A stretch of DNA of 64,000 nt, taken from a candidate division CPR2 bacterium GW2011_GWC2_39_35 (GTDB taxonomy: Bacteria; Patescibacteriota; CPR2). Shown one piece after another: positions 1 to 50,386 of this stretch. The notes under the pieces were generated by a model. The model saw nothing but the letters and a program-made list of their open reading frames with translations, did no database searches and was not told the origin of the DNA. The position numbers and the translations under genes were made by a program. The stretch covers positions 223,708 to 287,707 of the forward strand of contig LBWX01000002.1 in the NCBI GenBank assembly GCA_000995065.1. The letters are read 5' to 3'. The first letter of the stretch is position 1; each line of letters starts with the position of its first letter.

Positions 1-1
1 A

Positions 2-718
2 ATGCGGACCCCATTGGCTCAGATAGAAGGTTTTCTTTTTCTCGCCATGAAGCAGCTAGAAGAAGTAAGAGATATTAGTCCGGAAACTAAAAACAATATC
101 GAAATGGCTCATAATTCGGCAATTAACCTTATTAATCTTACAAACGATATCTTAACAGTCTTTAAACTGGATAGTAATAAAATGGAAGTCGTCTTAAAAC
201 AGGTCAAATTAAGTGATATTATTGGCGGCGTCATCAGCAATTATGAAAAAGATGTGGCAAAAAAGAATCTTAAAATTCATTATAAAAATCAATGTAAAAA
301 TGAATCCAAAATAATTACCGATGAAAGTAAATTAACTCAGATTTTATCAAATTTGGTTCAAAACGCAATTAAATTTACCGAAAGAGGATCTGTAGAAATT
401 GTTCTTAAAGAAGATAATAAAAGTTTTATTATAAAGGTTTCGGATACGGGATATGGGATCGACCACTCTGCTTTAAAACATGTTTTCGAGCGCTTTTACA
501 GGCCGGAAAATTGGGAAACCAGAAAGACTCAAGGTACGGGCCTAGGGCTTTACATCGTAAAAAACTTAGTTGAAAGATTGAGCGGAGAAATCGCTGTAGA
601 GAGCGCCAGGGACATCGGTTCAACTTTTACCTTAACCCTACCGAAGGAATACAAGAACAGCGATGACTTAAAAAAGGCTTCCGAGGAAGAGCTAAAAAAT
701 TTTATTGGAACTTTCTAA
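2..718 (+). CDS. Sensor histidine kinase, C-terminal part (gene starts upstream of window)
   Basis: The translation starts inside the H-box context (LRTPL). HATPase_c motifs are present: N-box NLVQNAIKFT, G-boxes DTGYGI and GTGLGL. Confidence 0.8.
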   Translation: MRTPLAQIEGFLFLAMKQLEEVRDISPETKNNIEMAHNSAINLINLTNDILTVFKLDSNKMEVVLKQVKLSDIIGGVISNYEKDVAKKNLKIHYKNQCKNESKIITDESKLTQILSNLVQNAIKFTERGSVEIVLKEDNKSFIIKVSDTGYGIDHSALKHVFERFYRPENWETRKTQGTGLGLYIVKNLVERLSGEIAVESARDIGSTFTLTLPKEYKNSDDLKKASEEELKNFIGTF

Positions 719-753
719 AATAACGATATAATAGAATAAAGGTAGGAGAAAAT

Positions 754-1131
754 ATGGCTAAAAAAGAAAAAATACTTGTTGTTGATGACGATAAAGGGCT
801 GTGTCAGCTTTATAAATTAACCATGGAACAAGAAGGTTACGAGGTTTTTACGGCAAATCAGGGAGAGGAAGGTCTAAGCAGAGCCTTGGAGATTAAACCG
901 GATCTTATCCTGCTTGATATAATGATGCCTATGATTCATGGTTTAAATGTCTTAGATATCTTAAAGGCAACTCCCGAAACAAAAGATTTGAAGGTTATTG
1001 TTTTATCGGCACTGTCTGACGAAGAGACAAAGAATAAGGCGAGAGAATTTGGTGCCTCAGATTATATTGTCAAATCTCAATCTACAATGGCTGAGGTTAT
1101 TGGAAGAGTCGCCGACATCCTAAATGCATAA
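754..1131 (+). CDS. Single-domain response regulator (CheY-like receiver)
   Basis: VVDDD near the N-terminus, a conserved LLDIMMP (phospho-acceptor Asp context) and a K near the C-terminus. A ribosome-binding site GGAGAA lies upstream. Confidence 0.8.
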   Translation: MAKKEKILVVDDDKGLCQLYKLTMEQEGYEVFTANQGEEGLSRALEIKPDLILLDIMMPMIHGLNVLDILKATPETKDLKVIVLSALSDEETKNKAREFGASDYIVKSQSTMAEVIGRVADILNA

Positions 1132-2091
1132 ATGCAAAAGATTTTAAGAAAAGAAAAATTAACAGAATTTTTAGAATACTTGGAGGTCAGGTATGATGTT
1201 TATGCCTTAGCAAAAAGTGGGGGAGAGCATGAATATCATTACGAAAAAGTTACCGCCAGGGATTATTCATATACGATAGGAATTTCTGAGGTTACTCCCA
1301 AACATTTCTTTTTGCCGGCAAGCCACGAGATGTTTAAGGCTCTGGGAACTTCTAGTAAAAAGAAAGTTATTTTTGGTGTCCATTACTTTGATATCGAAGC
1401 TATTTCTCTTTTAGATAAAGCTTTTAAATTTCCTATTACCGATCAGGAATTTTTTACTTTAAAAGAGAAGGTAATCATAATTGGGATGGATTACACCCCG
1501 GCGCCAAAAGAGGGTCACGATCTTTATTTGCAAATTTTAGAAGATGAATATGCGGTTACTGCCGGTTCCGGTGTAGGAGCGCGCCTCGCAAAACTTAAAT
1601 TTTTTGAGGAAGCTAAGGCTCATCCTAAAAAAGATTCCTGTCAAACTGAGGATGTGGTTAAAGATTCAAGATTGGCGGCGGCCATCAGGGAAAGCAAGGA
1701 CAGCAAAATTTGGGATGATTTATCCAAAAGATGTTTTGGCTGCGGCACCTGCAGTTACGTTTGCCCTGTTTGCTACTGCTTTGACATAAAAGATACCTTT
1801 GATCTTAAAGGAAACGCCAAAAGAGAAAGGTGTTGGGATTCCTGCATGCTTTCTAATTTTGCTACTATTGCTGGAGGATATGATTTTCGGCCGGAGCTAA
1901 GGAATCGGATTTATAACTGGTATTATCATAAATTTGTTAGAATGCCGAAAGAGCTAAAAAGGGTAGGCTGCGTTGGTTGTTCCAGATGCGTTAGCTTCTG
2001 TCCGGCTCGGATTAATATCCGCGAAGTCTTAAGTGATGTCTTAAAGGAATACGAGAAGAAACATGCCAAAAAATTTATATTATCCAAATAA
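1132..2091 (+). CDS. hydB: Hydrogenase-associated Fe-S subunit (sulfhydrogenase beta / AsrA-like)
   Basis: Two CxxCxxCxxxCP ferredoxin motifs (CFGCGTCSYVCP and CVGCSRCVSFCP). It is the first gene of a four-gene hydrogenase operon. Confidence 0.65.
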   Translation: MQKILRKEKLTEFLEYLEVRYDVYALAKSGGEHEYHYEKVTARDYSYTIGISEVTPKHFFLPASHEMFKALGTSSKKKVIFGVHYFDIEAISLLDKAFKFPITDQEFFTLKEKVIIIGMDYTPAPKEGHDLYLQILEDEYAVTAGSGVGARLAKLKFFEEAKAHPKKDSCQTEDVVKDSRLAAAIRESKDSKIWDDLSKRCFGCGTCSYVCPVCYCFDIKDTFDLKGNAKRERCWDSCMLSNFATIAGGYDFRPELRNRIYNWYYHKFVRMPKELKRVGCVGCSRCVSFCPARINIREVLSDVLKEYEKKHAKKFILSK

Positions 2092-2887
2092 AGCTAAAAT
2101 AATTTTTATTGAAGAGCAAGCGCCAGGAATGAGACTTTTCGGGATTAGATTTTCGGATAAAAATATCCATCAAAGTTTTAATTTTGTACCGGGTCAATTT
2201 GTTTTCTTGTCGCTCTTGGGTCACGGTGAATTTCCGGTTTCCATTAGCTCTCATCCAAATGAAAAAGATTGTTTAGAGCTTCTTATTAGAAATGTAGGGG
2301 CGGTTACGGGTGCCCTTTTTGGCTTAAATGTTGGGGCAGAAGTTGGTATAAGAGGCCCTTTTGGCAATGGCTTTGATATCCGGAAACTTTATGGAAAAGA
2401 TTTGGTAGTAGTTGCCGGAGGATGCGGTGTCGCTCCTCTTAGATCCTTGATGAAAGGGGTCCTTATTGAAAGAAAGAAGTTTAATAAGATATACTTCTTG
2501 TATGGGGCTAGAACTCCTAAGGACATGCTGTTTAAAAAAGACATTCAGGCTTGGCGAAAGCAATGCGGCGTTTATCTTACTGTAGATGAGCCGGATTCTA
2601 GTTGGAAAGAAAATGTCGGCCTTATTACTACTCTTTTTGGGAGTATTAGGGTAGACAAAGCGGCAGTGGCTGTTACTTGCGGCTCTCCGGCCATGTTTAA
2701 GTTTGTTCTTGTCGAGCTTAAGGCCTTGGGACTTAAAGACAGTAATATCTATTTGTCGTTAGAACGGAGAATGAAATGCGGCATCGGAAAATGTCAGCAT
2801 TGCACTTGCGGCGATAAATATGTATGTTTGGATGGACCGGTGTTTGCATTTAGTGAGATAAAAGAAAACCCAGAGGTGTTATTATGA
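2063..2887 (+). CDS. hydG: FAD/NAD(P)-binding oxidoreductase subunit with C-terminal 2Fe-2S (sulfhydrogenase gamma / PyrK-like)
   Basis: PyrK/AsrB-like fold signatures (GGCGVAPL) and a C-terminal Cys cluster CGIGKCQHCTCG. It overlaps the upstream and downstream genes. Confidence 0.65.
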   Translation: MPKNLYYPNKAKIIFIEEQAPGMRLFGIRFSDKNIHQSFNFVPGQFVFLSLLGHGEFPVSISSHPNEKDCLELLIRNVGAVTGALFGLNVGAEVGIRGPFGNGFDIRKLYGKDLVVVAGGCGVAPLRSLMKGVLIERKKFNKIYFLYGARTPKDMLFKKDIQAWRKQCGVYLTVDEPDSSWKENVGLITTLFGSIRVDKAAVAVTCGSPAMFKFVLVELKALGLKDSNIYLSLERRMKCGIGKCQHCTCGDKYVCLDGPVFAFSEIKENPEVLL

Positions 2888-3627
2888 AACATAAAGTAAA
2901 AATTGCAATTTTTGACTTAACAGACTGCGAAGGCTGCGAGCTTCAGTTCTTAGCTTTCGTCGAGAAAGTTTTGGAAATGGACGATCAATTAGAAATTACA
3001 AACTGGCGTCTGGCAAAACAGAAGAATGTCGAAGGCCCTTTTGACGTCGCTTTTATCGAAGGAAGCCCCTTAACCGAAGAAGACATCGAACTAATAAAAG
3101 AGATTAAGAAGCATTCCAAAGCGGTTGTGGCACTTGGAAATTGTGCTTCATTGGCCGGAATTCCGGGTCTCATTAATGGTGAGGAAAGAGAACGGCTTGC
3201 TAAAAAGATCTATGGCCCAAATTACAAACTAAGAGTTAGGGAAGTCCGCCCCCTCAGCCATTATATTGATGTCGATTATGAACTTCGAGGTTGTCCAGTT
3301 ACCGAGAAAGAACTGGAAGAGCTAGTATCAAGCCTAATTTCCGGCAAAAAAGTCGTGCCAAAGACTTATCCGGTATGCTTAGAATGTAAGGCAAATGGTA
3401 ATCCTTGCTTATTTTTAGAAAATAAAGCCTGTCTGGGAGCTGTTACGAAAGGTGGTTGTGGGGCACTTTGTCCGTCTCATGGTCACCGTTGCTATGGCTG
3501 TTTGGGTCCGGTCAGAGAAAACAATACTGATGCCATAACAAACCGTTTATCCGAGACGGTGGGCAAGGACGAAGCAATACGCCAGCTCGAGATTTTTGTA
3601 AATAACCCGATGATGGAGGAAAAATGA
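2884..3627 (+). CDS. hydD: NiFe hydrogenase small (delta) subunit
   Basis: N-terminal DCEGCE proximal-cluster cysteines and a C-terminal Cys-rich Fe-S region (CPSHGHRCYGC). It is translationally coupled (ATGA overlap) to the large subunit. Confidence 0.75.
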   Translation: MKHKVKIAIFDLTDCEGCELQFLAFVEKVLEMDDQLEITNWRLAKQKNVEGPFDVAFIEGSPLTEEDIELIKEIKKHSKAVVALGNCASLAGIPGLINGEERERLAKKIYGPNYKLRVREVRPLSHYIDVDYELRGCPVTEKELEELVSSLISGKKVVPKTYPVCLECKANGNPCLFLENKACLGAVTKGGCGALCPSHGHRCYGCLGPVRENNTDAITNRLSETVGKDEAIRQLEIFVNNPMMEEK

Positions 3628-41996: not shown

Positions 41997-42171
41997 AATC
42001 TTATTCCTTCCACTCGGAGGTTTATATTCAATTGCTAAGATTGCATGGCAATTTGCCGATGTTACAGGATATCACAAAAAGACGTTTTTGTACATAATTT
42101 CGAAGGAATTTCGAGTCGCTCCTGAATTTAACATCAAAACTGCAGTGGAAAAGAAGATAATTGCTTTAATC

Positions 42172-42251
42172 TAGTCATCCCTGTGGAAGCGGGGATTCGG
42201 GAAGAGCGTATCTAGAAAAGGTCTGGATTCCAGACTCCGCGGGAATGACAA
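42172..42251 (-). mobile_element. MITE-like element, diverged copy 1 (terminal inverted repeats GTCATCCCTGTG ... CGCGGGAATGACAA)
   Basis: Its ends align with the reverse complement of the copy at 50276-50359. It lies in the divergent promoter region of the island. Confidence 0.5.
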
Positions 42252-42491
42252 GCATTTAATTTGTAAATAATCCAAAACGCTAGAATTCCGAACATCCTCC
42301 AACAAGCTACATTCGAATTACCAATCCTTAGTATCAATAATGTACTCACGAATTAATAAAATAAGAATAAGCTTAAAAATCACTGTACTTTTTTGAGCTG
42401 TGCTTTTGATTTTCCGCCTAACATTGAAGGAACATTGAAGGAAAAATCTTTGACCAATAGTTAGATAAATGATATAATTTCAGACTAATAG

Positions 42492-45224
42492 TTGCGGTAC
42501 AGTTACTTGAAAACTGAATATTTATCAGTGAACATAGGAGATTTAGGATTAGGAAAAGGAGTGGATTTCGTGAAAGAGATAGTAGTAGAGCAAGGCGCAG
42601 GGGATGAAGAAAAAAGAATGATTGAAAACATGCGAGGGATAGCAGTGGATGATGCGGAATTCGTAATAATGGCAGAAGAAAAGAAAGACACAGTGAATAA
42701 AAAACTATGGCTTGAAAACATGACGCGGATAACCGAAGATGATCTTCAATTCGTTTCGGGCACGGCTTGGAGGTTCTATAAACAGAATTCCATACTATTG
42801 GGAATGCTGGGTATAGACTTTTGTAGCCTGGAAGATGCGGCTTTCGGCGGTATGGAGGATGCGTGTAAAAGATACGATGAGACAAGAGGAAAAAGCTTGC
42901 GAGGATTCTATTACATTCGGGTTGTCGGAAGCATGTGGGATTTCATAAGAAGCCGCTCGCTTATCTCCAGATCAGCTCTAAAGGCCATAAAGGAAGTTCA
43001 GAGCTATGTTGCAAGCCAAAGCCAAGATGGCCGTGTAGTAACAAGCTCGGAGATATATGAAATATTTTCCGAGGCTCACGTAATGGCAATGGCGCAATCT
43101 AATAACAGGGTCGCTTTTCCGCTGTCGCTGGATCAAATTGTGTTGTATGGCGGCCAAGGGGGCAGGGTACAGGCTGAGACTTCTTATCATAACCTCATTT
43201 CTGATGATAGCGATACTGAAGACGATGCGACTTACCAGCAGGCTCTTGAAGAGCTTCGTGATGTCATCAAAGAGGTTAGTCTTAACTATGGTTCGTCGCC
43301 CGAGGTGAAGGAAAGAGCATTGTCGTTAATGGAAAAACGGTATAATTTCGATAGCGACTCAAAAGCTCCTTCGTTTAGGGAGCTAGGAGATGAATTCGGT
43401 TGTACCGAAAGTCGAGTAAGCCAAATTCACAGTAAGCTAATCAGCAAGCTGAAGGATGAAGAACCTGCATTGGATATTCTTAGGGACCTGGCGAGCAGGA
43501 TTAGCCGTCAAGGCATCTCTTCTCGTCAATCTGTTCGGATAGTATCCTTTGGTCAGCCGGACCTGACTCCTCCTCCGCACATTCGCCAGAAAAGAAGAAT
43601 ATCTAAACGTGAAGATGTCTACGACAAAAATGTAGCATCAGAGGAAACGTTGTTGGAGGCGGAGGATATTGAAGTCGAAGGAGTATCCGATGACAGCAGC
43701 ACCCCTCAGGATACTAAAGCTGTTTTTTTGTTTGATTCAGACATCAGGGCCTATAAGATTATGCTCGATTTATTGAAGAAGAGCAAAGATGGATTGGTGC
43801 GACTCAAAGAAAAGCATAAGGTTACTGATGAAGTACTTCTAAAGCTTAGGCGCAAGGGCTTTGCGATAATGCAAAGTGACGGCTCTGTGCTGGTGCAGAA
43901 GAAGAAATACATCAGGATGCCAGATCCTGAGTCAGAGTCCAGGCAGGATAAAGCTGTTTTTTCTTCGAGGAAAGCTAGGATTAAAGATAGCGAACCAGGG
44001 AAACGAGGGGCGCGAAAACTCACTGATTCTGATTGGGAGGAGCGCCACAAAGAGACGCTCGCGAAACTTTATGAGCGTTTCCCAGACGGATGTGTCGTTG
44101 GCGGACTGGGGACGATCTTTATCGAACTGAATATGAGAGGAGGTTTCAATTATCTTAAGAGATTCAAAGAAGACTCCGGTTTTCTGGAGGAGACTAGTCG
44201 CCTAAGGCATAGTTTTTCTGAGAAGGCAGAAGCTTATCTGGAATCTATAGGCAAGATCCTAATCAAGACGGAACCGGAGGATGTGCCCGAAGAGTCCAAA
44301 AACATAACTGCCACATCCGGAAAACCCGGAAGACAAAAGCTCTCTTCTGACCATTGGAGTGCTCGTCATAAAGAGACGCTAAAAAAACTCTACGACCAAT
44401 TCCCCGATGGATGGGTCATTGGTGGACTGAGTACGGTCTTTAAGGATCTGGGCATTGTCGGAGGACAGAGTTATCTTCAGAGGTTCAGAGACGTATCTGG
44501 TTTCCTTCTAAAGGTCAATGGATGGAAACATTGTTTCTCTGATGAGGCAATTGCCTATCTGGAATCGATTGGGCTAACCATTATCGAGCCAGAAGAGGAC
44601 GACTCGCTGGAAACCGATGATATCTCGACTTCAGGATCAAGAAGAGGCGGAAGGCGGAAGCTTACTGATGCAGACTGGGATGTTCGTTTGAGAGTCACGG
44701 TAGAGAAGCTTCATGAACGATTCCCAGATGGGTGGATAGTCGGTTCCCTGACTGAGATCTTTAGAGACTTAGGCATCAAGGGAGGATACAACTATCTTCA
44801 CAGGTTCAGAGAGTCCTTCTACATTCGCAAGGTTAAACATAGACAACATCGCCTTACCGATATTGCCAGCAGGTATCTCGAATCGATTGGAAAGAATATA
44901 ATCGAATCGGATCCAGGGAAGTACGATCAGGAACGATTCTTGCGGTCTTCCCAAAAGGCGGTCGAGATTTTAACGCCCATGGTTAAAACTATGAAGCAAG
45001 ATGACTGGCTTGCTGAGTTCTTGAGTAATGTTGTGCAAGAGAACGGTGGCTTTTGTTACAAAACGGATCTTGAAACTACTTGCAAAGACAAATATGGTTT
45101 TGTAAAAAAAGTCATGCTTAAGACTGCACGAAATGACGGGTACGTCAGCGAGGAAAGTGGCGGTAGCGGCGAGATAACCGAAAAAGGACAGGAGTTCTTA
45201 AGACAGAAGGGCTATATTAACTAA
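42492..45224 (+). CDS. Sigma-70-family-like protein (regions 2 and 4) fused to a ~590-aa C-terminal extension with three ~95-aa tandem repeats
   Basis: Region 2-like YDETRGKSLRGFYYIRVVGSMWDFIRSRS and region 4-like FRELGDEFGCTESRVSQIHSKLISKLK. Three repeats of LTD.DWE.RHKETL.KLYE.FPDGWV.GGL.T.F..LGI.GG..YL.RF...SGFL......S..A.AYLESIG. The gene looks locally GC-richer. Confidence 0.55.
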   Translation: MRYSYLKTEYLSVNIGDLGLGKGVDFVKEIVVEQGAGDEEKRMIENMRGIAVDDAEFVIMAEEKKDTVNKKLWLENMTRITEDDLQFVSGTAWRFYKQNSILLGMLGIDFCSLEDAAFGGMEDACKRYDETRGKSLRGFYYIRVVGSMWDFIRSRSLISRSALKAIKEVQSYVASQSQDGRVVTSSEIYEIFSEAHVMAMAQSNNRVAFPLSLDQIVLYGGQGGRVQAETSYHNLISDDSDTEDDATYQQALEELRDVIKEVSLNYGSSPEVKERALSLMEKRYNFDSDSKAPSFRELGDEFGCTESRVSQIHSKLISKLKDEEPALDILRDLASRISRQGISSRQSVRIVSFGQPDLTPPPHIRQKRRISKREDVYDKNVASEETLLEAEDIEVEGVSDDSSTPQDTKAVFLFDSDIRAYKIMLDLLKKSKDGLVRLKEKHKVTDEVLLKLRRKGFAIMQSDGSVLVQKKKYIRMPDPESESRQDKAVFSSRKARIKDSEPGKRGARKLTDSDWEERHKETLAKLYERFPDGCVVGGLGTIFIELNMRGGFNYLKRFKEDSGFLEETSRLRHSFSEKAEAYLESIGKILIKTEPEDVPEESKNITATSGKPGRQKLSSDHWSARHKETLKKLYDQFPDGWVIGGLSTVFKDLGIVGGQSYLQRFRDVSGFLLKVNGWKHCFSDEAIAYLESIGLTIIEPEEDDSLETDDISTSGSRRGGRRKLTDADWDVRLRVTVEKLHERFPDGWIVGSLTEIFRDLGIKGGYNYLHRFRESFYIRKVKHRQHRLTDIASRYLESIGKNIIESDPGKYDQERFLRSSQKAVEILTPMVKTMKQDDWLAEFLSNVVQENGGFCYKTDLETTCKDKYGFVKKVMLKTARNDGYVSEESGGSGEITEKGQEFLRQKGYIN

Positions 45225-45298
45225 ACTGTATAGGCGAGGTGACAAAAGGGACCGGTTCTTAATTTGAAGCTAATACTACTTAATGTTTTATTAAGTAA

Positions 45299-45790
45299 AT
45301 GCTTCATTTTAAGAATCGGTCCCGAATTATTTATGGGTTTTACTTCTCAATTACTCATGAAGACGATGAAATGAGAGGCCTTATTAGCAAAACCGACCAC
45401 AAGACACTGGCTCTTTGGAGTATTGATTGTGCGGAAAGAGTTATGCACTATTTTGAAACAGAATACACCGATGATCCTCGGCCTCGCGAAGCTATCAACA
45501 CTCTTCAGGAATGGATTAAAACGAGTAAATTCAGTATGAGGATTATCCGTCAAGCATCGTTAGCCTCACACGCCGCAGCCAAAGAGATTGGCAATGATAG
45601 TCCGGCTGCATCCGCAGCACATGCAGCTGGACAAGCCGTTGCGACTGCTCATGTATCAACGCATTCTTATGGACCTGCCGTATATGCTCAACAAGCTGTT
45701 TTTAAAGCTACAAACTCGTTAGACGCTGTTCAAAAAGAGAGGGATTGGCAATTTCAGCATTTGCTAGACCTTGGGGCCAAGAAGTACTAA
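45299..45790 (+). CDS. Putative immunity-protein-like all-alpha protein (LALW..DCAE..PRPRE family, Ala/His-rich)
   Basis: HKTLALWSIDCAERVMHYFE, DDPRPREAINTLQEWI, and the AASAAHAAGQAVATAHVSTH repeat typical of small orphan 'immunity protein' ORFs. The likely start is the internal MRGLIS. Confidence 0.5.
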   Translation: MLHFKNRSRIIYGFYFSITHEDDEMRGLISKTDHKTLALWSIDCAERVMHYFETEYTDDPRPREAINTLQEWIKTSKFSMRIIRQASLASHAAAKEIGNDSPAASAAHAAGQAVATAHVSTHSYGPAVYAQQAVFKATNSLDAVQKERDWQFQHLLDLGAKKY

Positions 45791-46075
45791 TTGCGACAAA
45801 TAAGTACTTAGCAGATTAGATTATTTGCATCATTAATAAAATAAGCTACCGAGAAATAGCTTATTAAGTATGCGTTCCATTTGGCGAGCCGAGATGTGCT
45901 TGAACTACTTCGTTTAACCGTGTTAATTTCAGACGTTCGTACTAGTATCTAGTTTCCATAATATGTATGATCAAATTAGATTAATAATGGGGTTATATGT
46001 GGGAGAAAATTAAAGATACTGTACTTTTGCATCAAGCGCAAAGCATAGTATTGTCTTTGATCGTTATTATCGGTA

Positions 46076-46426
46076 TTGCAGGCACCAGCTACTTTGTATT
46101 TCAAAAAGGTAATTCAAAATAATAATACGAAAGAAGGCACTCCTAGCAGTAGTACGGGGTCGTGCAGTGGGTTAGTCAAGTTTGGTGCCGTCTCAGTGGA
46201 GAAAGATCCGGCAGGAGATTCGGGGGCGTGGTTACGATTCGGCTATACGGCCGAAAAGGAGCTTAATTGTCAGTACACGATCACCTTCTACGACAGTCGA
46301 GAAGAGATAATCCGAACAATCCCAAATGTTGAAGATACCTTTCAATCTCCGAGCGGCCAGATCTATAATGGCTACAGCAGTACACCCTACCAATCAGGCA
46401 TGTCTGCAAAAGTTATCGTCAACTAG
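46076..46426 (+). CDS. Hypothetical small secreted protein (start uncertain; an overlapping upstream 41-aa transmembrane ORF sits in the -1 frame)
   Basis: 116 aa with a Ser/Thr-rich N-terminus and no known domain. Confidence 0.35.
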   Translation: MQAPATLYFKKVIQNNNTKEGTPSSSTGSCSGLVKFGAVSVEKDPAGDSGAWLRFGYTAEKELNCQYTITFYDSREEIIRTIPNVEDTFQSPSGQIYNGYSSTPYQSGMSAKVIVN

Positions 46427-46516
46427 TTTATAGTTCAGAGATTATAAAAACGCAAATACCGTGCTCAAAAGAGAACCGTCCCCTAAAAGTCTTACTGGAA
46501 CTATTCAATACTTACT

Positions 46517-47530
46517 TCATTCCTTTGAAGTGTATTTGAAGTTCACATCACGTTGTTTGGTAGGGAGCTGAAAACCGTCAATTTCAAAGGGATATGCAAG
46601 CACCCCGCCGGGGAAAGTCGCGTCGGGGCTGTAGCTCTTCCAATAGAAGAACGAGGTTGGCTGAACCCAATGCAGATTTTGGTTGCCCTGTTTTACGGTC
46701 AGATTTTTTGATTTGTCTGGCACCTTGAAACAAAATGAAGCAAAGGAGTGCTCGCCCACGTTCCCGGCATATCCGACCAGCTCCCCTCGTTTTACCGTCC
46801 GACCAATGAGCGCTTTGCAGGCTTTGGCGTTACCTTTCGAGGGAACTACATAATCATCAACTGGATAGAAAAGATGCCCTTCGGCCTGGTTATTTTTAGC
46901 GCCCCATTCAACATCATCACAATCTGAATTTTGGTAGTGCCCTTGCATTAAAGGCGAAGTATATAAATGATAAAGAATAATAGTCATTCCTGGCCAGTCA
47001 GGACTAGCAGATTCAAAAGTCAGCTCGATATCATTCATCGGTGTGTATTTTTTCCCGTCTGCTCCAATCCCAGATTCGCTGCTTTGATTCTTGAAACCAA
47101 CCAATGTCATATCTATTGGCGCAAGTAATGGTGCCTTGCTCTTAAGTTCGAATTCCATGCCACGCTTACCAGAATATGGCGTCGTCTTTGAATGAGAACC
47201 AACTTTGGGGCCGAGAGTAACAATATCTGAGTCAGCCCCTGTACCACCATACATTTCCGTATGAGTATTAATACCTTCCATGTTGGATGGGGGTGAAGTA
47301 ATCGCGGATACGCTTGTTGTGGGTACAGTTGGGATAGAAGTTGGCGAAGACATAGTGCTTGGTATCGATTTTTTGCTCTGTTTTTTTCCAGCCTTATTCA
47401 CTATTCCAAGACCAGCCAAAGCAAGTACAATTACAATAATAATTAAAATAAGCCCCATCCACCAATATTTTTTTAAGAAAGGTTTTTTGCTTGAAGGCTC
47501 ATTTTTCTCTTGATTGTTATCCAGCTCCAT
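46517..47530 (-). CDS. Membrane-anchored LytM/M23-like domain protein with degenerate active-site motifs
   Basis: Transmembrane helix, Ser/Thr/Pro-rich linker, and VKRGELVGYAGNVGEHSFASFCFKV resembling the M23 C-terminal G.V.kGq.IG.vG.TG.stGPHLHFE but lacking the HxH. Confidence 0.35.
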   Translation of the reverse strand: MELDNNQEKNEPSSKKPFLKKYWWMGLILIIIVIVLALAGLGIVNKAGKKQSKKSIPSTMSSPTSIPTVPTTSVSAITSPPSNMEGINTHTEMYGGTGADSDIVTLGPKVGSHSKTTPYSGKRGMEFELKSKAPLLAPIDMTLVGFKNQSSESGIGADGKKYTPMNDIELTFESASPDWPGMTIILYHLYTSPLMQGHYQNSDCDDVEWGAKNNQAEGHLFYPVDDYVVPSKGNAKACKALIGRTVKRGELVGYAGNVGEHSFASFCFKVPDKSKNLTVKQGNQNLHWVQPTSFFYWKSYSPDATFPGGVLAYPFEIDGFQLPTKQRDVNFKYTSKE

Positions 47531-47616
47531 TTGCTATAACTATACCACAAAATTAGCTTATTTTAGTATGCGTTCTATTCGGCGAGGTTAGTAGCGTTGG
47601 AACCTGCTCAAAATTC

Positions 47617-48306
47617 CTAACTTATATCCAAATCCCAAAGGATTGTCTTGAATAGTTCGTCACGATATTGGTTTAAAAAGTCATGATTTCCGTCAAGATT
47701 GATAATTCGGCTATTCTTTATGAGCCTAAGATTGTTGAAATCCATAACCTCGTCATTGATTGCATAAATAAGGGTAAGTTCGGTTTTCTTCGCTAGATTG
47801 TTGTAAAGTGAAACTACATCTGTTGTAAATCTTTCAGCCCAGTATTCTGGAGGGATGACAGTCACAGAACCATCGCTTCTACGTCTTCGGGTAATGTTGT
47901 AGAAATCTAATTGATTATCGGCAAGAGCCGTATAACGTTTCTGTAAATCTTCGATTTTAGTTTGAAAAAATGGTGATACTCCGATCACTTTTTCTACCTT
48001 GTCCGAGTTTTGACAGAGAGTTGGTATTAGGCTTCCCTGTGAATGCCCGATGATAATAATACTTTTGTATCTCTCGTCCCTGACTAGCTCATTGATGTGT
48101 TTCTGAAGGATGGACGCCTGGTCAGAAAAAGGTACAGCAAAAAGCTCCTTAGAATCCCCATCAAACTTATTGTAATTAAATTGTTTTGTTACAAATCCCC
48201 GTGATTCTAGCATAGACGCTAAAAAGGAAAATAGTCCTCGGGCATCTTTCATAACCCCAAAGCCATGCGAAAATAATATTACTGTATCTTGTGGTTTGTA
48301 TTTCAT
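47617..48306 (-). CDS. Alpha/beta-hydrolase fold protein
   Basis: Nucleophile elbow IIIGHSQGS and N-terminal HGFG. Confidence 0.6.
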   Translation of the reverse strand: MKYKPQDTVILFSHGFGVMKDARGLFSFLASMLESRGFVTKQFNYNKFDGDSKELFAVPFSDQASILQKHINELVRDERYKSIIIIGHSQGSLIPTLCQNSDKVEKVIGVSPFFQTKIEDLQKRYTALADNQLDFYNITRRRRSDGSVTVIPPEYWAERFTTDVVSLYNNLAKKTELTLIYAINDEVMDFNNLRLIKNSRIINLDGNHDFLNQYRDELFKTILWDLDIS

Positions 48307-48493
48307 GTCTAGATATTAGCAAAAAAAGTGCTTTGCAGAAAGGCTATTTTGCGTCATTAACAGAAATAAGCTGACCAAAGTCAGCTTATTCAGGATCTTA
48401 GGACAACCGGCCCCTAAGGCTTTCCTATTTTAACCACCACCAAAGGTGGTTGTGAAAATATGGCGATCCGAGTAGCGCAGGAACTAAATTAGA

Positions 48494-49879
48494 CTAAATA
48501 GTTGTAAAATAAGTTTTAAATTCACCTCTTTTGGCAATGATTTCCTTCAACTTTGCGCTATCGATACCCAACACACTTAGCAGTGATATTTTCATATATA
48601 TCTCTAGAACGATATTTACTCTAAACAATTCGACTGACGTAAGCAACTTATTTGAGCTCATTTTTAATGCATGCACGTAATTATTCCTAGTGTTTACAAT
48701 CTTTTTAATAATTTCATCATCCAATCCAATAGCTCCAGCATCTATGCAAAACGCCTCAATATCCTTCATTTTTCCCCTTAAAGAAAATTCAAAACCAAAA
48801 GCTGCCATGCTTTTTAATTTTTCTGCGTCGTCTTCAGATAGCGGCGCCGTTACTTTTTTCAACCATTCTTTATGCTCTTTCTTCCGCTTGTCAGTTACTG
48901 GATTGAGAAATCTTTTATGGAAAGATTCAACCGAAGATATCAGAGATAAAAATTTTGTAATGTCGGAAGCATTACCACTCCGACATGTTTTGATTGATTC
49001 CCATATTTCTCTTATTTCTTCATAATTATTAAACCAATATTTAATCATATTTTTCTTGATTTCATCTCTGATGTCCTCAAATTCAAATAACAACGAATAA
49101 GCACTTTCTCTCTCTGGCAATTGAAATGTGGCTGGAGAACTCAAGGATATTATGCTTAAAGTTGGGCTAATTTTTTTGCGAGGTCCTTTAAGATCTGAAG
49201 AAAAAATAATTTGATTAGTTTGCTCTTTAAATAAAAAGTTAAAAAATTCCTCAACAACTTTTAACATTATGACGGCTGACCAATAAGTCTGCTCATTAGA
49301 GAACTCAATTCTAATTAAATCATTATGAACTGCCCTAAATGATCTATCATATTGAAAATCAACTTGAAAATTCGTACTCATTTTCAAAGTACCATATGGC
49401 GGCAGTTCTACATCAAAATAATAGTTTTTTTTGTTCTTAAAACTTCTTGAATCACCATCAAAGTCTAGCAAGTTATCGTTAAAGAAAGTGTGAATGCCAG
49501 GTATTTCGCACTCAATATTCTTGATTTTCACTGGTATTTCCTTGTTACTCCAATTCTGTACAACGGCTAGCATCGAAGTAAAGTAAAGATCACTTTTACT
49601 GTAGAAGGGAATTCTTTTGTAGCCATTGAGATCGAATAATTTTATGCGAGAAAAATCACTTTTAGCTGCCGCATAATTAAATTTTTTAGGAAAATCTTCT
49701 AAATTTTTCCCTTGAATGTTCAATTCGAGGGATAAATCTGGAAAGCTTAGAAAGCCGTTCTTTTTTATTCCATTTCCAAAGGACCACATTCTTTTTTCTT
49801 TATAAGCATACAGTCCGTCAACTTTCGTGGTTAAGTCAATGTATGGTTCTTTAGAGAAAATTGTATTATTCTTTGCCAT
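48494..49879 (-). CDS. Hypothetical protein with C-terminal HEPN-like Rx4H motif (Abi/ApeA-like defence candidate)
   Basis: KIVNTRNNYVHA (R-x4-H) about 55 residues from the C-terminus in a predicted helical region. No other recognisable domain. Confidence 0.35.
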   Translation of the reverse strand: MAKNNTIFSKEPYIDLTTKVDGLYAYKEKRMWSFGNGIKKNGFLSFPDLSLELNIQGKNLEDFPKKFNYAAAKSDFSRIKLFDLNGYKRIPFYSKSDLYFTSMLAVVQNWSNKEIPVKIKNIECEIPGIHTFFNDNLLDFDGDSRSFKNKKNYYFDVELPPYGTLKMSTNFQVDFQYDRSFRAVHNDLIRIEFSNEQTYWSAVIMLKVVEEFFNFLFKEQTNQIIFSSDLKGPRKKISPTLSIISLSSPATFQLPERESAYSLLFEFEDIRDEIKKNMIKYWFNNYEEIREIWESIKTCRSGNASDITKFLSLISSVESFHKRFLNPVTDKRKKEHKEWLKKVTAPLSEDDAEKLKSMAAFGFEFSLRGKMKDIEAFCIDAGAIGLDDEIIKKIVNTRNNYVHALKMSSNKLLTSVELFRVNIVLEIYMKISLLSVLGIDSAKLKEIIAKRGEFKTYFTTI

Positions 49880-50043
49880 ATTTCACAAAAATTAGCATAC
49901 CGATCGGCATGCTAATTGCTTAGTAGGTCGACCGGTGGTTAATCGGTCTGTTATTTATTATTATTTGCCCTTCGACAAGCTCTCCTCGAGTCTGAGCGAC
50001 CTCGGAGTCGAAGACAGGGCATTTTCCGCCTTGCGGCGTAAAA

Positions 50044-50120
50044 TGGCGACCCGGACCAGACTCGAACTGGCGACCTCCTGCGTGACAGGCAGGCGTTCTA
50101 ACCAACTGAACTACCGGGCC
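50044..50120 (-). tRNA. tRNA-Asp(GTC), CCA encoded
   Basis: Reverse complement GGCCCGG..GCTT.., anticodon arm CCTGC-CTGTCAC-GCAGG, T-arm CGCCA-GTTCGAG-TCTGG, 3' GGTCGCCA. Confidence 0.85.
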
Positions 50121-50223
50121 TTAATTAGGAAGAAGGAATAATTAAGAAGCAAAAATTCTTCCTTATTACTTTTTCCTGTTTTGAACCTTCATAATATACC
50201 AAAAAAAGGGGGGAATGTAAAGA

Positions 50224-50386
50224 ATATGTCCCTGAACCACCCTCACTTTTTCAAAAACAAGAAAAATAACTCTAGTTGTCATTCCCGCGTAGGCGGGAAT
50301 CTAGGAAACTCATTACATTTCCAAGCCTTCTGGATCCTAAGTTTTCACGGGGATGACAAAAAGTGAGAGTAGTTCAGGATATGTCC
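50224..50386 (+). mobile_element. Composite MITE-like element: inner 84-nt element (50276-50359, terminal inverted repeats TTGTCATTCCCG / CGGGGATGACAA) nested within 28-nt outer inverted repeats
   Basis: Outer inverted repeats atatgtccctgaaccaccctcacttttt and aaaagtgagagtagttcaggatatgtcc. Internal hairpin ATTCCCGC-gtag-GCGGGAAT. A second, diverged copy lies at 42172-42251. Confidence 0.55.

Follow-up and report, generated by a model that had tools for sequence, protein, structure and literature searches.

The window analysed here, 64,000 nucleotides long, comes from a groundwater (Rifle) CPR/Patescibacteria genome whose nearest named protein homologues are from Saccharibacteria/Patescibacteria. 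Identical DNA occurs in GCA_000995395.1, GCA_001771115.1, GCA_003500505.1 and a 513-kb ENA scaffold. The window carries two short non-coding elements with inverted ends, copies A and B, each made of two opposed hairpin arms and a spacer (a doublet; Table 1). The segment between them encodes, among other products, a 461-aa protein (48494-49879, minus strand) matching HEPN ApeA and the PADLOC PDC-S58 and Cas13-ApeA models (E about 1e-21 to 1e-23), and a 910-aa protein (42492-45224, plus strand) whose residues 112-322 form a FliA/WhiG-like sigma region, the ~590 residues after it having no family match. Copy B separates the ORF of this sigma-factor-like protein from a divergent 270-aa orphan ORF, which adjoins the copy just outside the segment. 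On the minus strand, copy A comes after the stop codon of a 110-aa ORF (50397) and before a promoter-like site (50221-50193). The ATTCCC arms of the two doublets face each other across the segment.

Table 1 Features of the two doublets and their surroundings (positions in the window).
Feature	Position	Strand	Description
8-kb segment between doublets	42252-50275		910-aa protein, Imm5-like, orphan ORFs, alpha/beta hydrolase, HEPN ApeA-like, tRNA-Asp
Doublet A	50276-50359	+	Left ATTCCCGCG arm, 25-nt spacer, inverted ATCCCCG arm; architecture as in 13 viral and at least 120 genome doublets
A-left arm, TGTCATTCCCGCGTAGGCGGGAATCTAG	50277-50304	+	Intact NTS/SRM hairpin; GTC before palindrome, C after
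A-right arm, TTGTCATCCCCGTGAAAACTTAGGATCCAG	50330-50359	-	Decayed; 3' half of stem gone relative to variant TGTCATCCCCGTGAAAACGGGGATCCAG
Doublet B	42172-42251	-	Reversed, more decayed copy in divergent intergenic region 41997-42491
B-left arm, TTGTCATTCCCGCGGAGTCTGGAATCCAG	42224-42251	-	Stem broken by two substitutions
B-right arm, TAGTCATCCCTGTGGAAGCGGGGATTCGGG	42172-42201	+	Stem survives solely via two G.T pairs
Outer inverted repeat, left arm	50231-50251	+	21 nt, 90%; unique in window
Outer inverted repeat, right arm	50358-50378	+	Overlaps final 2 nt of doublet A; unique in window
T/U-rich tract, CTAGAGTTATTTTTCTTGTTTTTG (minus strand)	50252-50275	-	Directly after doublet hairpin; possible terminator tail
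Promoter-like TTTACA-17-(TG)TATATT	50193-50221	-	73 nt upstream of tRNA-Asp; 10/12 consensus matches, consensus match only
tRNA-Asp (GTC)	50044-50120	-	156 nt downstream of doublet A, minus strand

Copies A and B are homologous. Both are ~80 bp with TGTCAT...ATGACA ends and can be aligned end to end, B being the reversed, diverged copy in a divergent intergenic region that the initial annotation had described; their spacers hardly align. Two further features annotated on copy A are confirmed: the 12-nt terminal inverted repeats (50276-50287 and 50348-50359), which are complementary at 11 of 12 positions, and the internal 8-bp hairpin (ATTCCCGC-GTAG-GCGGGAAT, 50281-50300), which folds as single-stranded DNA at -8.9 kcal/mol (z = -4.6). 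Folds of the whole elements reach -32 and -29 kcal/mol (z = -3.9 and -3.2). Just one of the four arms across both copies, A-left, is intact, and the single-stranded DNA hairpins of A-right, B-left and B-right are weak or unfolded. A-right is a CCCCGT...ACGGGG variant in which the 3' half of the stem has been replaced (GGG to TTAG), and no stable single-stranded DNA fold was computed for it; the intact form of this variant is present in four other loci (L191, L196, L210 and L229). Across ~84 kb, comprising the window and 10 kb on either side, neither an SRM nor a hairpin-associated TGTCATYCC-type end was found beyond A and B. A Logan assembly contig of the same organism stops inside doublet A, at the equivalent of window position 50333 between the spacer and the right arm, which may be a repeat-induced assembly break.

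The intact arm closely resembles a repeat with a known enzymatic partner. The 28-nt Neisseria Transformation Sequence (NTS), CGTCATTCCCGCGMAVGCGGGAATCYRG, contains dRS3 and has a degenerate form termed SRM (PMC11893778, Nat Commun 2025). SsnA, a 94-aa GIY-YIG protein, binds the NTS hairpin and cuts just upstream of it, acting on single-stranded DNA only, on one strand only, and not on RNA; the GTC before the palindrome is needed for cleavage and the C after it for binding (PMC11893778). The motif usually lies on both sides of ssn genes, and the system reduces transformation by NTS-bearing DNA; insertion-sequence-like behaviour of the NTS-ssn unit is put forward in that paper as a hypothesis only (PMC11893778). 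A-left matches the strict NTS at 26 of 28 positions. Its two mismatches, T for C at the first base and T for M in the loop, fall at non-critical positions, and the critical GTC and C are retained. With two mismatches, A-left lies outside strict NTS membership, which allows at most one (PMC11893778), and the other three arms are more distant. A-left alone in the window fits the SRM pattern as published, HGTCWYN(0-2)YYVSBRHN(0-5)WNVSBRGN(0-2)RNCYNB, and the arms A-right, B-left and B-right fall outside it; 100 versions of the window simulated under a first-order Markov (dinucleotide-frequency) model contained 0.1 matches on average. Within copy A, the 21-mer ATTCCCGCGTAGGCGGGAATC is one loop base off the Neisseria REPIN master sequence.

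The doublet plan, a ATTCCCGCG hairpin, a spacer and an inverted ATCCCCGC hairpin, recurs far beyond this locus. Each doublet combines two related 28-nt hairpin motifs, GTCATTCCCGCG-loop-GCGGGAATC and GTCATCCCCGC-loop-GCGGGGATC, and a hetero-doublet of the form GTCATTCCCGCG-loop-GCGGGAATCC, 20-45 nt spacer, GGATCCCCGC-loop-GCGGGGATGAC fits both copies. An exact scan of viral contigs for the left-end hairpin GTCATTCCCGCGNAGNCNGGAATC returned at least 120 stretches, including Neisseria-like arrays, solitary hairpins and inverted pairs. Hetero-doublets of 68-98 bp are present in 13 viral contigs, and a looser doublet scan of one genome per species returned at least 120 stretches. Their hosts include Proteobacteria, Planctomycetota, Nitrospirota, Spirochaetota, Omnitrophota and Dehalococcoidia, among others. 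The gene-less hetero-doublet is common in CPR/Patescibacteria, whose MAGs account for 15 of the 120 among the matches listed. The second arm is a perfect hairpin in 75 of 125 doublets, with at least 10 different compensated stems, the main ones being ATCCCCGC/GCGGGGAT (36 doublets), ATCCCCGA/TCGGGGAT (9) and ATCCCTGC/GCAGGGAT (8), followed by ATCCCCGT/ACGGGGAT (6) and ATCCCGGC/GCCGGGAT (3). These compensatory changes indicate that the second-arm hairpin is itself under selection. By sequence and architecture, A and B are NTS/SRM doublets, a known kind of element in a new host, a CPR bacterium.

Two side observations concern the wider family. Ahead of many NTS hairpins (loci L015, L027, L085, L107, L194, L201, L226 and L242) stand, in tandem, one to three incomplete repeats of the hairpin's own 5' half and flank (for example, three copies of TGTCATTCCCGCGGTTCCTA); these may record slippage at the cleavage side, or DNA cut and rejoined there repeatedly. 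Separately, a doublet in a Patescibacteria MAG (L169:4837-4931) and one in a MAG labelled Gammaproteobacteria (L182:2285-2372) share the same arms, loops and spacer core, TTATAATGTAATT, which suggests recent horizontal transfer or a binning error.

Only one kind of gene was found linked to doublet-type hairpins, a GIY-YIG nuclease of 90-100 aa. Among the loci fetched, nine carry ssn genes enclosed by the two hairpin types and adjacent to the scan matches, and Ssn was the only small, non-housekeeping family to recur near the genome doublets. Clustering of neighbouring ORFs revealed no recurrent transposase-like family near the 120 genome doublets listed; in the viral set, the same clustering mostly picked up structural genes of phages and GTAs and was uninformative on the element. 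The hairpin types flank ssn in the same order as in the doublets. As ssn is bracketed by both hairpin types and Ssn alone is recurrent, doublets without a gene resemble the two ends of an NTS-ssn-NTS unit that lacks its gene. The locus studied here differs from the Neisseria system in having three decayed arms and no Ssn homologue in the window or the 10 kb on each side (~84 kb). An Ssn HMM search of 8-kb stretches around 15 CPR doublets was negative, and a low-GC Ssn sequence used as a protein query brought up Bacteroidota-type proteins only, none of them labelled CPR. The main text of PMC11893778 mentions no CPR host and does not describe the gene-less hetero-doublet as a unit.

We consider it likely that A and B belong to the NTS/SRM hairpin family as REPIN-like inverted doublets of a widespread repeat first recognised as Neisseria dRS3/NTS, that the family hairpin is cut by Ssn, and that the local copies are relics. 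This reading draws on the sequence identity, shared architecture, hairpin covariation, lack of target-site duplication and arm decay observed in these elements. The hairpin would form in single-stranded DNA, where small GIY-YIG Ssn nucleases would bind it and cut just upstream, the ssn gene usually sitting between the same two hairpins. Gene-less doublets would then represent both ends of an ssn unit, and the CPR copies are probably old, mostly inactive and persisting as neutral relics. What was annotated as an MITE-like element of unspecified type can now be placed in a hairpin repeat family with a biochemical partner, the Ssn single-stranded DNA nucleases. The genomes of CPR bacteria are very small, and these organisms probably rely on taking up DNA. 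If they also encode Ssn, control of transformation of the Neisseria NTS/Ssn type could extend to them. The biological stakes at this locus are modest, given that the copies are few and decayed.

The main rival to a role for Ssn is a REPIN-RAYT mechanism, in which the doublets would be copied by a domesticated Y1 (HUH) transposase via single-stranded DNA intermediates, with Ssn a separate user of the hairpin. The Neisseria repeat ATTCCCGCGCAGGCGGGAATC has been credited to two enzymes, SsnA (PMC11893778) and, in the accessible text of a preprint by Bertels and colleagues that assigns ATTCCCGCGCAGGCGGGAATC REPINs to it, Group-2 RAYT (bioRxiv 10.1101/2021.07.10.451892). That text contains no mention of Ssn, and the main text of PMC11893778 invokes RAYT and REP as an analogy only. 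Hairpins in inverted pairs spaced by under 130 bp, missing target-site duplications and hairpin covariation all fit REP/REPIN biology, and the geometry seen here, opposed REP-type sequences that can form one long hairpin, with the arms of copy A 60 nt apart, is that of a REPIN. The ATTCCC-N8-GGGAAT core and the long doublet hairpin are also shared with Neisseria dRS3/NIME arrays and the Neisseria REPIN (bioRxiv 10.1101/2021.07.10.451892). Those repeats, however, number in the hundreds, are arrayed and are accompanied by a RAYT gene, whereas the ~84 kb around this locus hold two isolated, diverged copies with no array and no RAYT. Pfam scans of the window ORFs, together with precomputed annotations of the flanks, revealed housekeeping genes and neither a Y1 transposase (Y1_Tnp) nor a small GIY-YIG protein, and near the 120 listed genome doublets Ssn recurs whereas transposase-like families do not. 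REP/BIME-RAYT and IS200/IS605 'peel and paste' systems, with which NTS has been compared (PMC11893778), likewise have extragenic hairpins recognised as single-stranded DNA, inverted pairs and no target-site duplication, but they represent another sequence family, and the enzyme linked to the doublets, here as in the literature, belongs to the GIY-YIG nucleases and not to the HUH/Y1 transposases. Overall, RAYT-driven copying seems rather improbable, although it remains the closest competitor.

The elements could instead matter mainly as RNA, with A serving as a terminator, an insulator or an FtrB/WsnRNA46-like small RNA and B as a regulatory structure of the divergent promoters. In permissive Rfam comparisons (window 50259-50375 and 42160-42269), both copies gave full-length matches to WsnRNA46 of Wolbachia (RF02625; 22.5 and 23.3 bits, gathering score 65.3) and A matched FtrB of Francisella (RF02748; 25.1 bits, gathering score 66). 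These scores are far below the gathering thresholds, and the copies are not members of either family. The FtrB consensus holds GUCAUUCCCGCGUAGGCGGGAAUCU, identical to A-left (the hairpins agree over 25 nt), and WsnRNA46 is a doublet with GTGTCAT...ATGACAC ends; what is common to both is the repeat module, not the whole RNA. NTS/SRM repeat modules seem to underlie at least these two Rfam families. Northern blotting has verified FtrB as an RNA of 115 nt, and as the Northern probe spans the shared, A-type hairpin, such modules can be transcribed. The suggestion in the initial annotation of structured small RNAs therefore holds to the extent that relatives are transcribed in other bacteria, but the matches of A and B themselves are weak.

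Local features also speak to an RNA role. As minus-strand RNA, doublet A forms a long hairpin (-29 kcal/mol, z = -3.2) directly followed by the U-rich tract CUAGAGUUAUUUUUCUUGUUUUUG, and the composite hairpin enclosed by the outer inverted repeat reaches -61.9 kcal/mol (z = -3.4). The B-right stem is retained solely by G.T (G.U) pairs. From its position and predicted folding, a function of copy A as a terminator or insulator is plausible: the copy, with its outer inverted repeat and U-rich tract, may have been co-opted to separate the 110-aa gene from the tRNA-Asp promoter. A consensus terminator scan, however, called no terminator at copy A, deletion of ftrB had no growth, stress-sensitivity or virulence phenotype, and three of the four arms here are decayed. 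As SsnA does not act on RNA, the constraint seen across the family fits recognition of single-stranded DNA rather than RNA. We regard an explanation mainly in terms of RNA as unlikely.

The bracketing of the 8-kb segment raises the question of whether the doublets have a role as borders, as the initial annotation had proposed for an island. The two copies do bracket an atypical segment, rich in defence-like, orphan and poorly conserved genes, and in Neisseria dRS3/NIME repeats also surround variable genes; that A and B mark a variable segment is plausible but unproven. The segment's GC content (about 0.35-0.44 against ~0.39 for the window) is only slightly raised, and two copies within 8 kb of 84 kb are not statistically remarkable. 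A relative of 61% protein identity is syntenic with the window between 57111 and 50412, and the synteny breaks off exactly at copy A; the intergenic DNA of this relative is too diverged to judge an empty site. All assemblies of the species, and a strain with a 98%-identical neighbouring glycosyltransferase, carry copy A unchanged, and no empty site was found for either copy. No genome without the 8-kb segment was found, nor were homologues of the 270-aa ORF beside copy B, which were sought to trace the border. The variable-segment reading goes no further than plausible because there is no att-like repeat, GC is barely raised, the spacing is unremarkable and no segment-less genome was found. 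A more far-reaching proposal is that the doublets act as functional borders of an accessory cassette of 8 kb and, in the manner of the Neisseria NTS-gene-NTS unit, would steer the cutting or recombination of incoming single-stranded DNA that carries the cassette during natural transformation, the family as a whole being a pan-bacterial single-stranded DNA-hairpin element that colonises CPR and prefers existing palindromes; we think this doubtful.

A tRNA-integrated island was also considered and rejected: no direct repeat of the tRNA-Asp 3' end occurs near copy B or elsewhere in the window, and across the family none of 125 doublets is associated with a tRNA gene. In the L135 strain, which is otherwise identical here, the tRNA-Asp T-arm and 3' half carry compensatory differences (window 50010-50075 versus L135:2700-2760; GCCAG...CTGGT versus GGCGG...CCGCT), and a 26-bp indel directly follows the tRNA gene. 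These differences look like a recombination junction at the tRNA-Asp 3' end.

The initial annotation had called A and B MITE-like, which is apt for a short, non-coding family with inverted-repeat ends and many copies elsewhere. A classical MITE would be a deletion derivative of an insertion sequence with a DDE transposase, moved by cut-and-paste through the 12-nt terminal repeats, and the small size, TGTCAT...ATGACA ends, AT-rich host sites and numerous copies in other genomes agree with such an origin. When 121 family members were screened for target-site duplications, a check that the annotation had suggested, there was no excess of duplications of 2-9 nt at any boundary offset, and A and B themselves have none. 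The apparent terminal repeats are the 5' flanks of two conserved, covarying hairpins, the sole linked gene encodes the small GIY-YIG nuclease, and no transposase-encoding insertion sequence with such ends was found. The CTAG that the annotation noted before both copies is present in plus-strand coordinates but is not a consistent flank; it lies at opposite ends of A and B in their own orientation and is therefore not a shared target site, and it is also contained in the repeat consensus (GGAATCYAG). Without target-site duplication or a nearby transposase, the MITE label is wrong on mechanism, and a classical MITE is very improbable.

MITEs such as the Neisseria Correia element and the Rickettsia palindromic elements (RPEs) are ~80-150 bp long, with inverted ends and many copies, and RPEs occur within ORFs. 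The doublets resemble these elements in size, inverted ends and many copies, and 4 of the 15 CPR doublets lie inside putative ORFs of at least 120 aa (L136:6950-7037, L164:961-1044, L214:5633-5708 and L249:7699-7784), an RPE-like trait; they differ from Correia-type MITEs in having neither target-site duplication nor a parent DDE insertion sequence. The weakest explanation, that the two intergenic regions hold unrelated operator sites or palindromes arisen by chance, can cite the 12-nt terminal repeat, which alone is not significantly over-represented in the window (8 matches versus 4.4 expected), but is refuted by the 24-nt left-end pattern (at most 3 mismatches), which matches in the window at A and B only with 0 expected, by the SRM match, and by the fit of both loci, end to end, to an architecture found hundreds of times elsewhere.

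Copy A differs from B in lying within an outer inverted repeat. The 28-nt arms given in the initial annotation demand an indel and extra mismatches, but a firm core of 21 nt at 90% stands. Among other doublets, complementary flanks with runs of at least 8 nt were found in 11.7%, versus 4.5% of random positions in the same loci, and runs of at least 10 nt in 4.2% versus 0.4% (L252, L202 and L243 are examples). Direct repeats at the flanks were equally frequent, owing to tandem arrays in L162 and L210. As most control positions fall in coding sequence and repeat counts are raised by tandem arrays, enrichment of outer inverted repeats as a family trait is only suggestive. In the Azospirillaceae locus L162 (2589-3042), four tandem 124-bp units each contain one doublet. 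In L243 (~1-3229), a doublet lies within a 12-nt inverted repeat that is itself between 11-bp direct repeats, ATCTGGTGATA, an arrangement that resembles a nested element with a target duplication.
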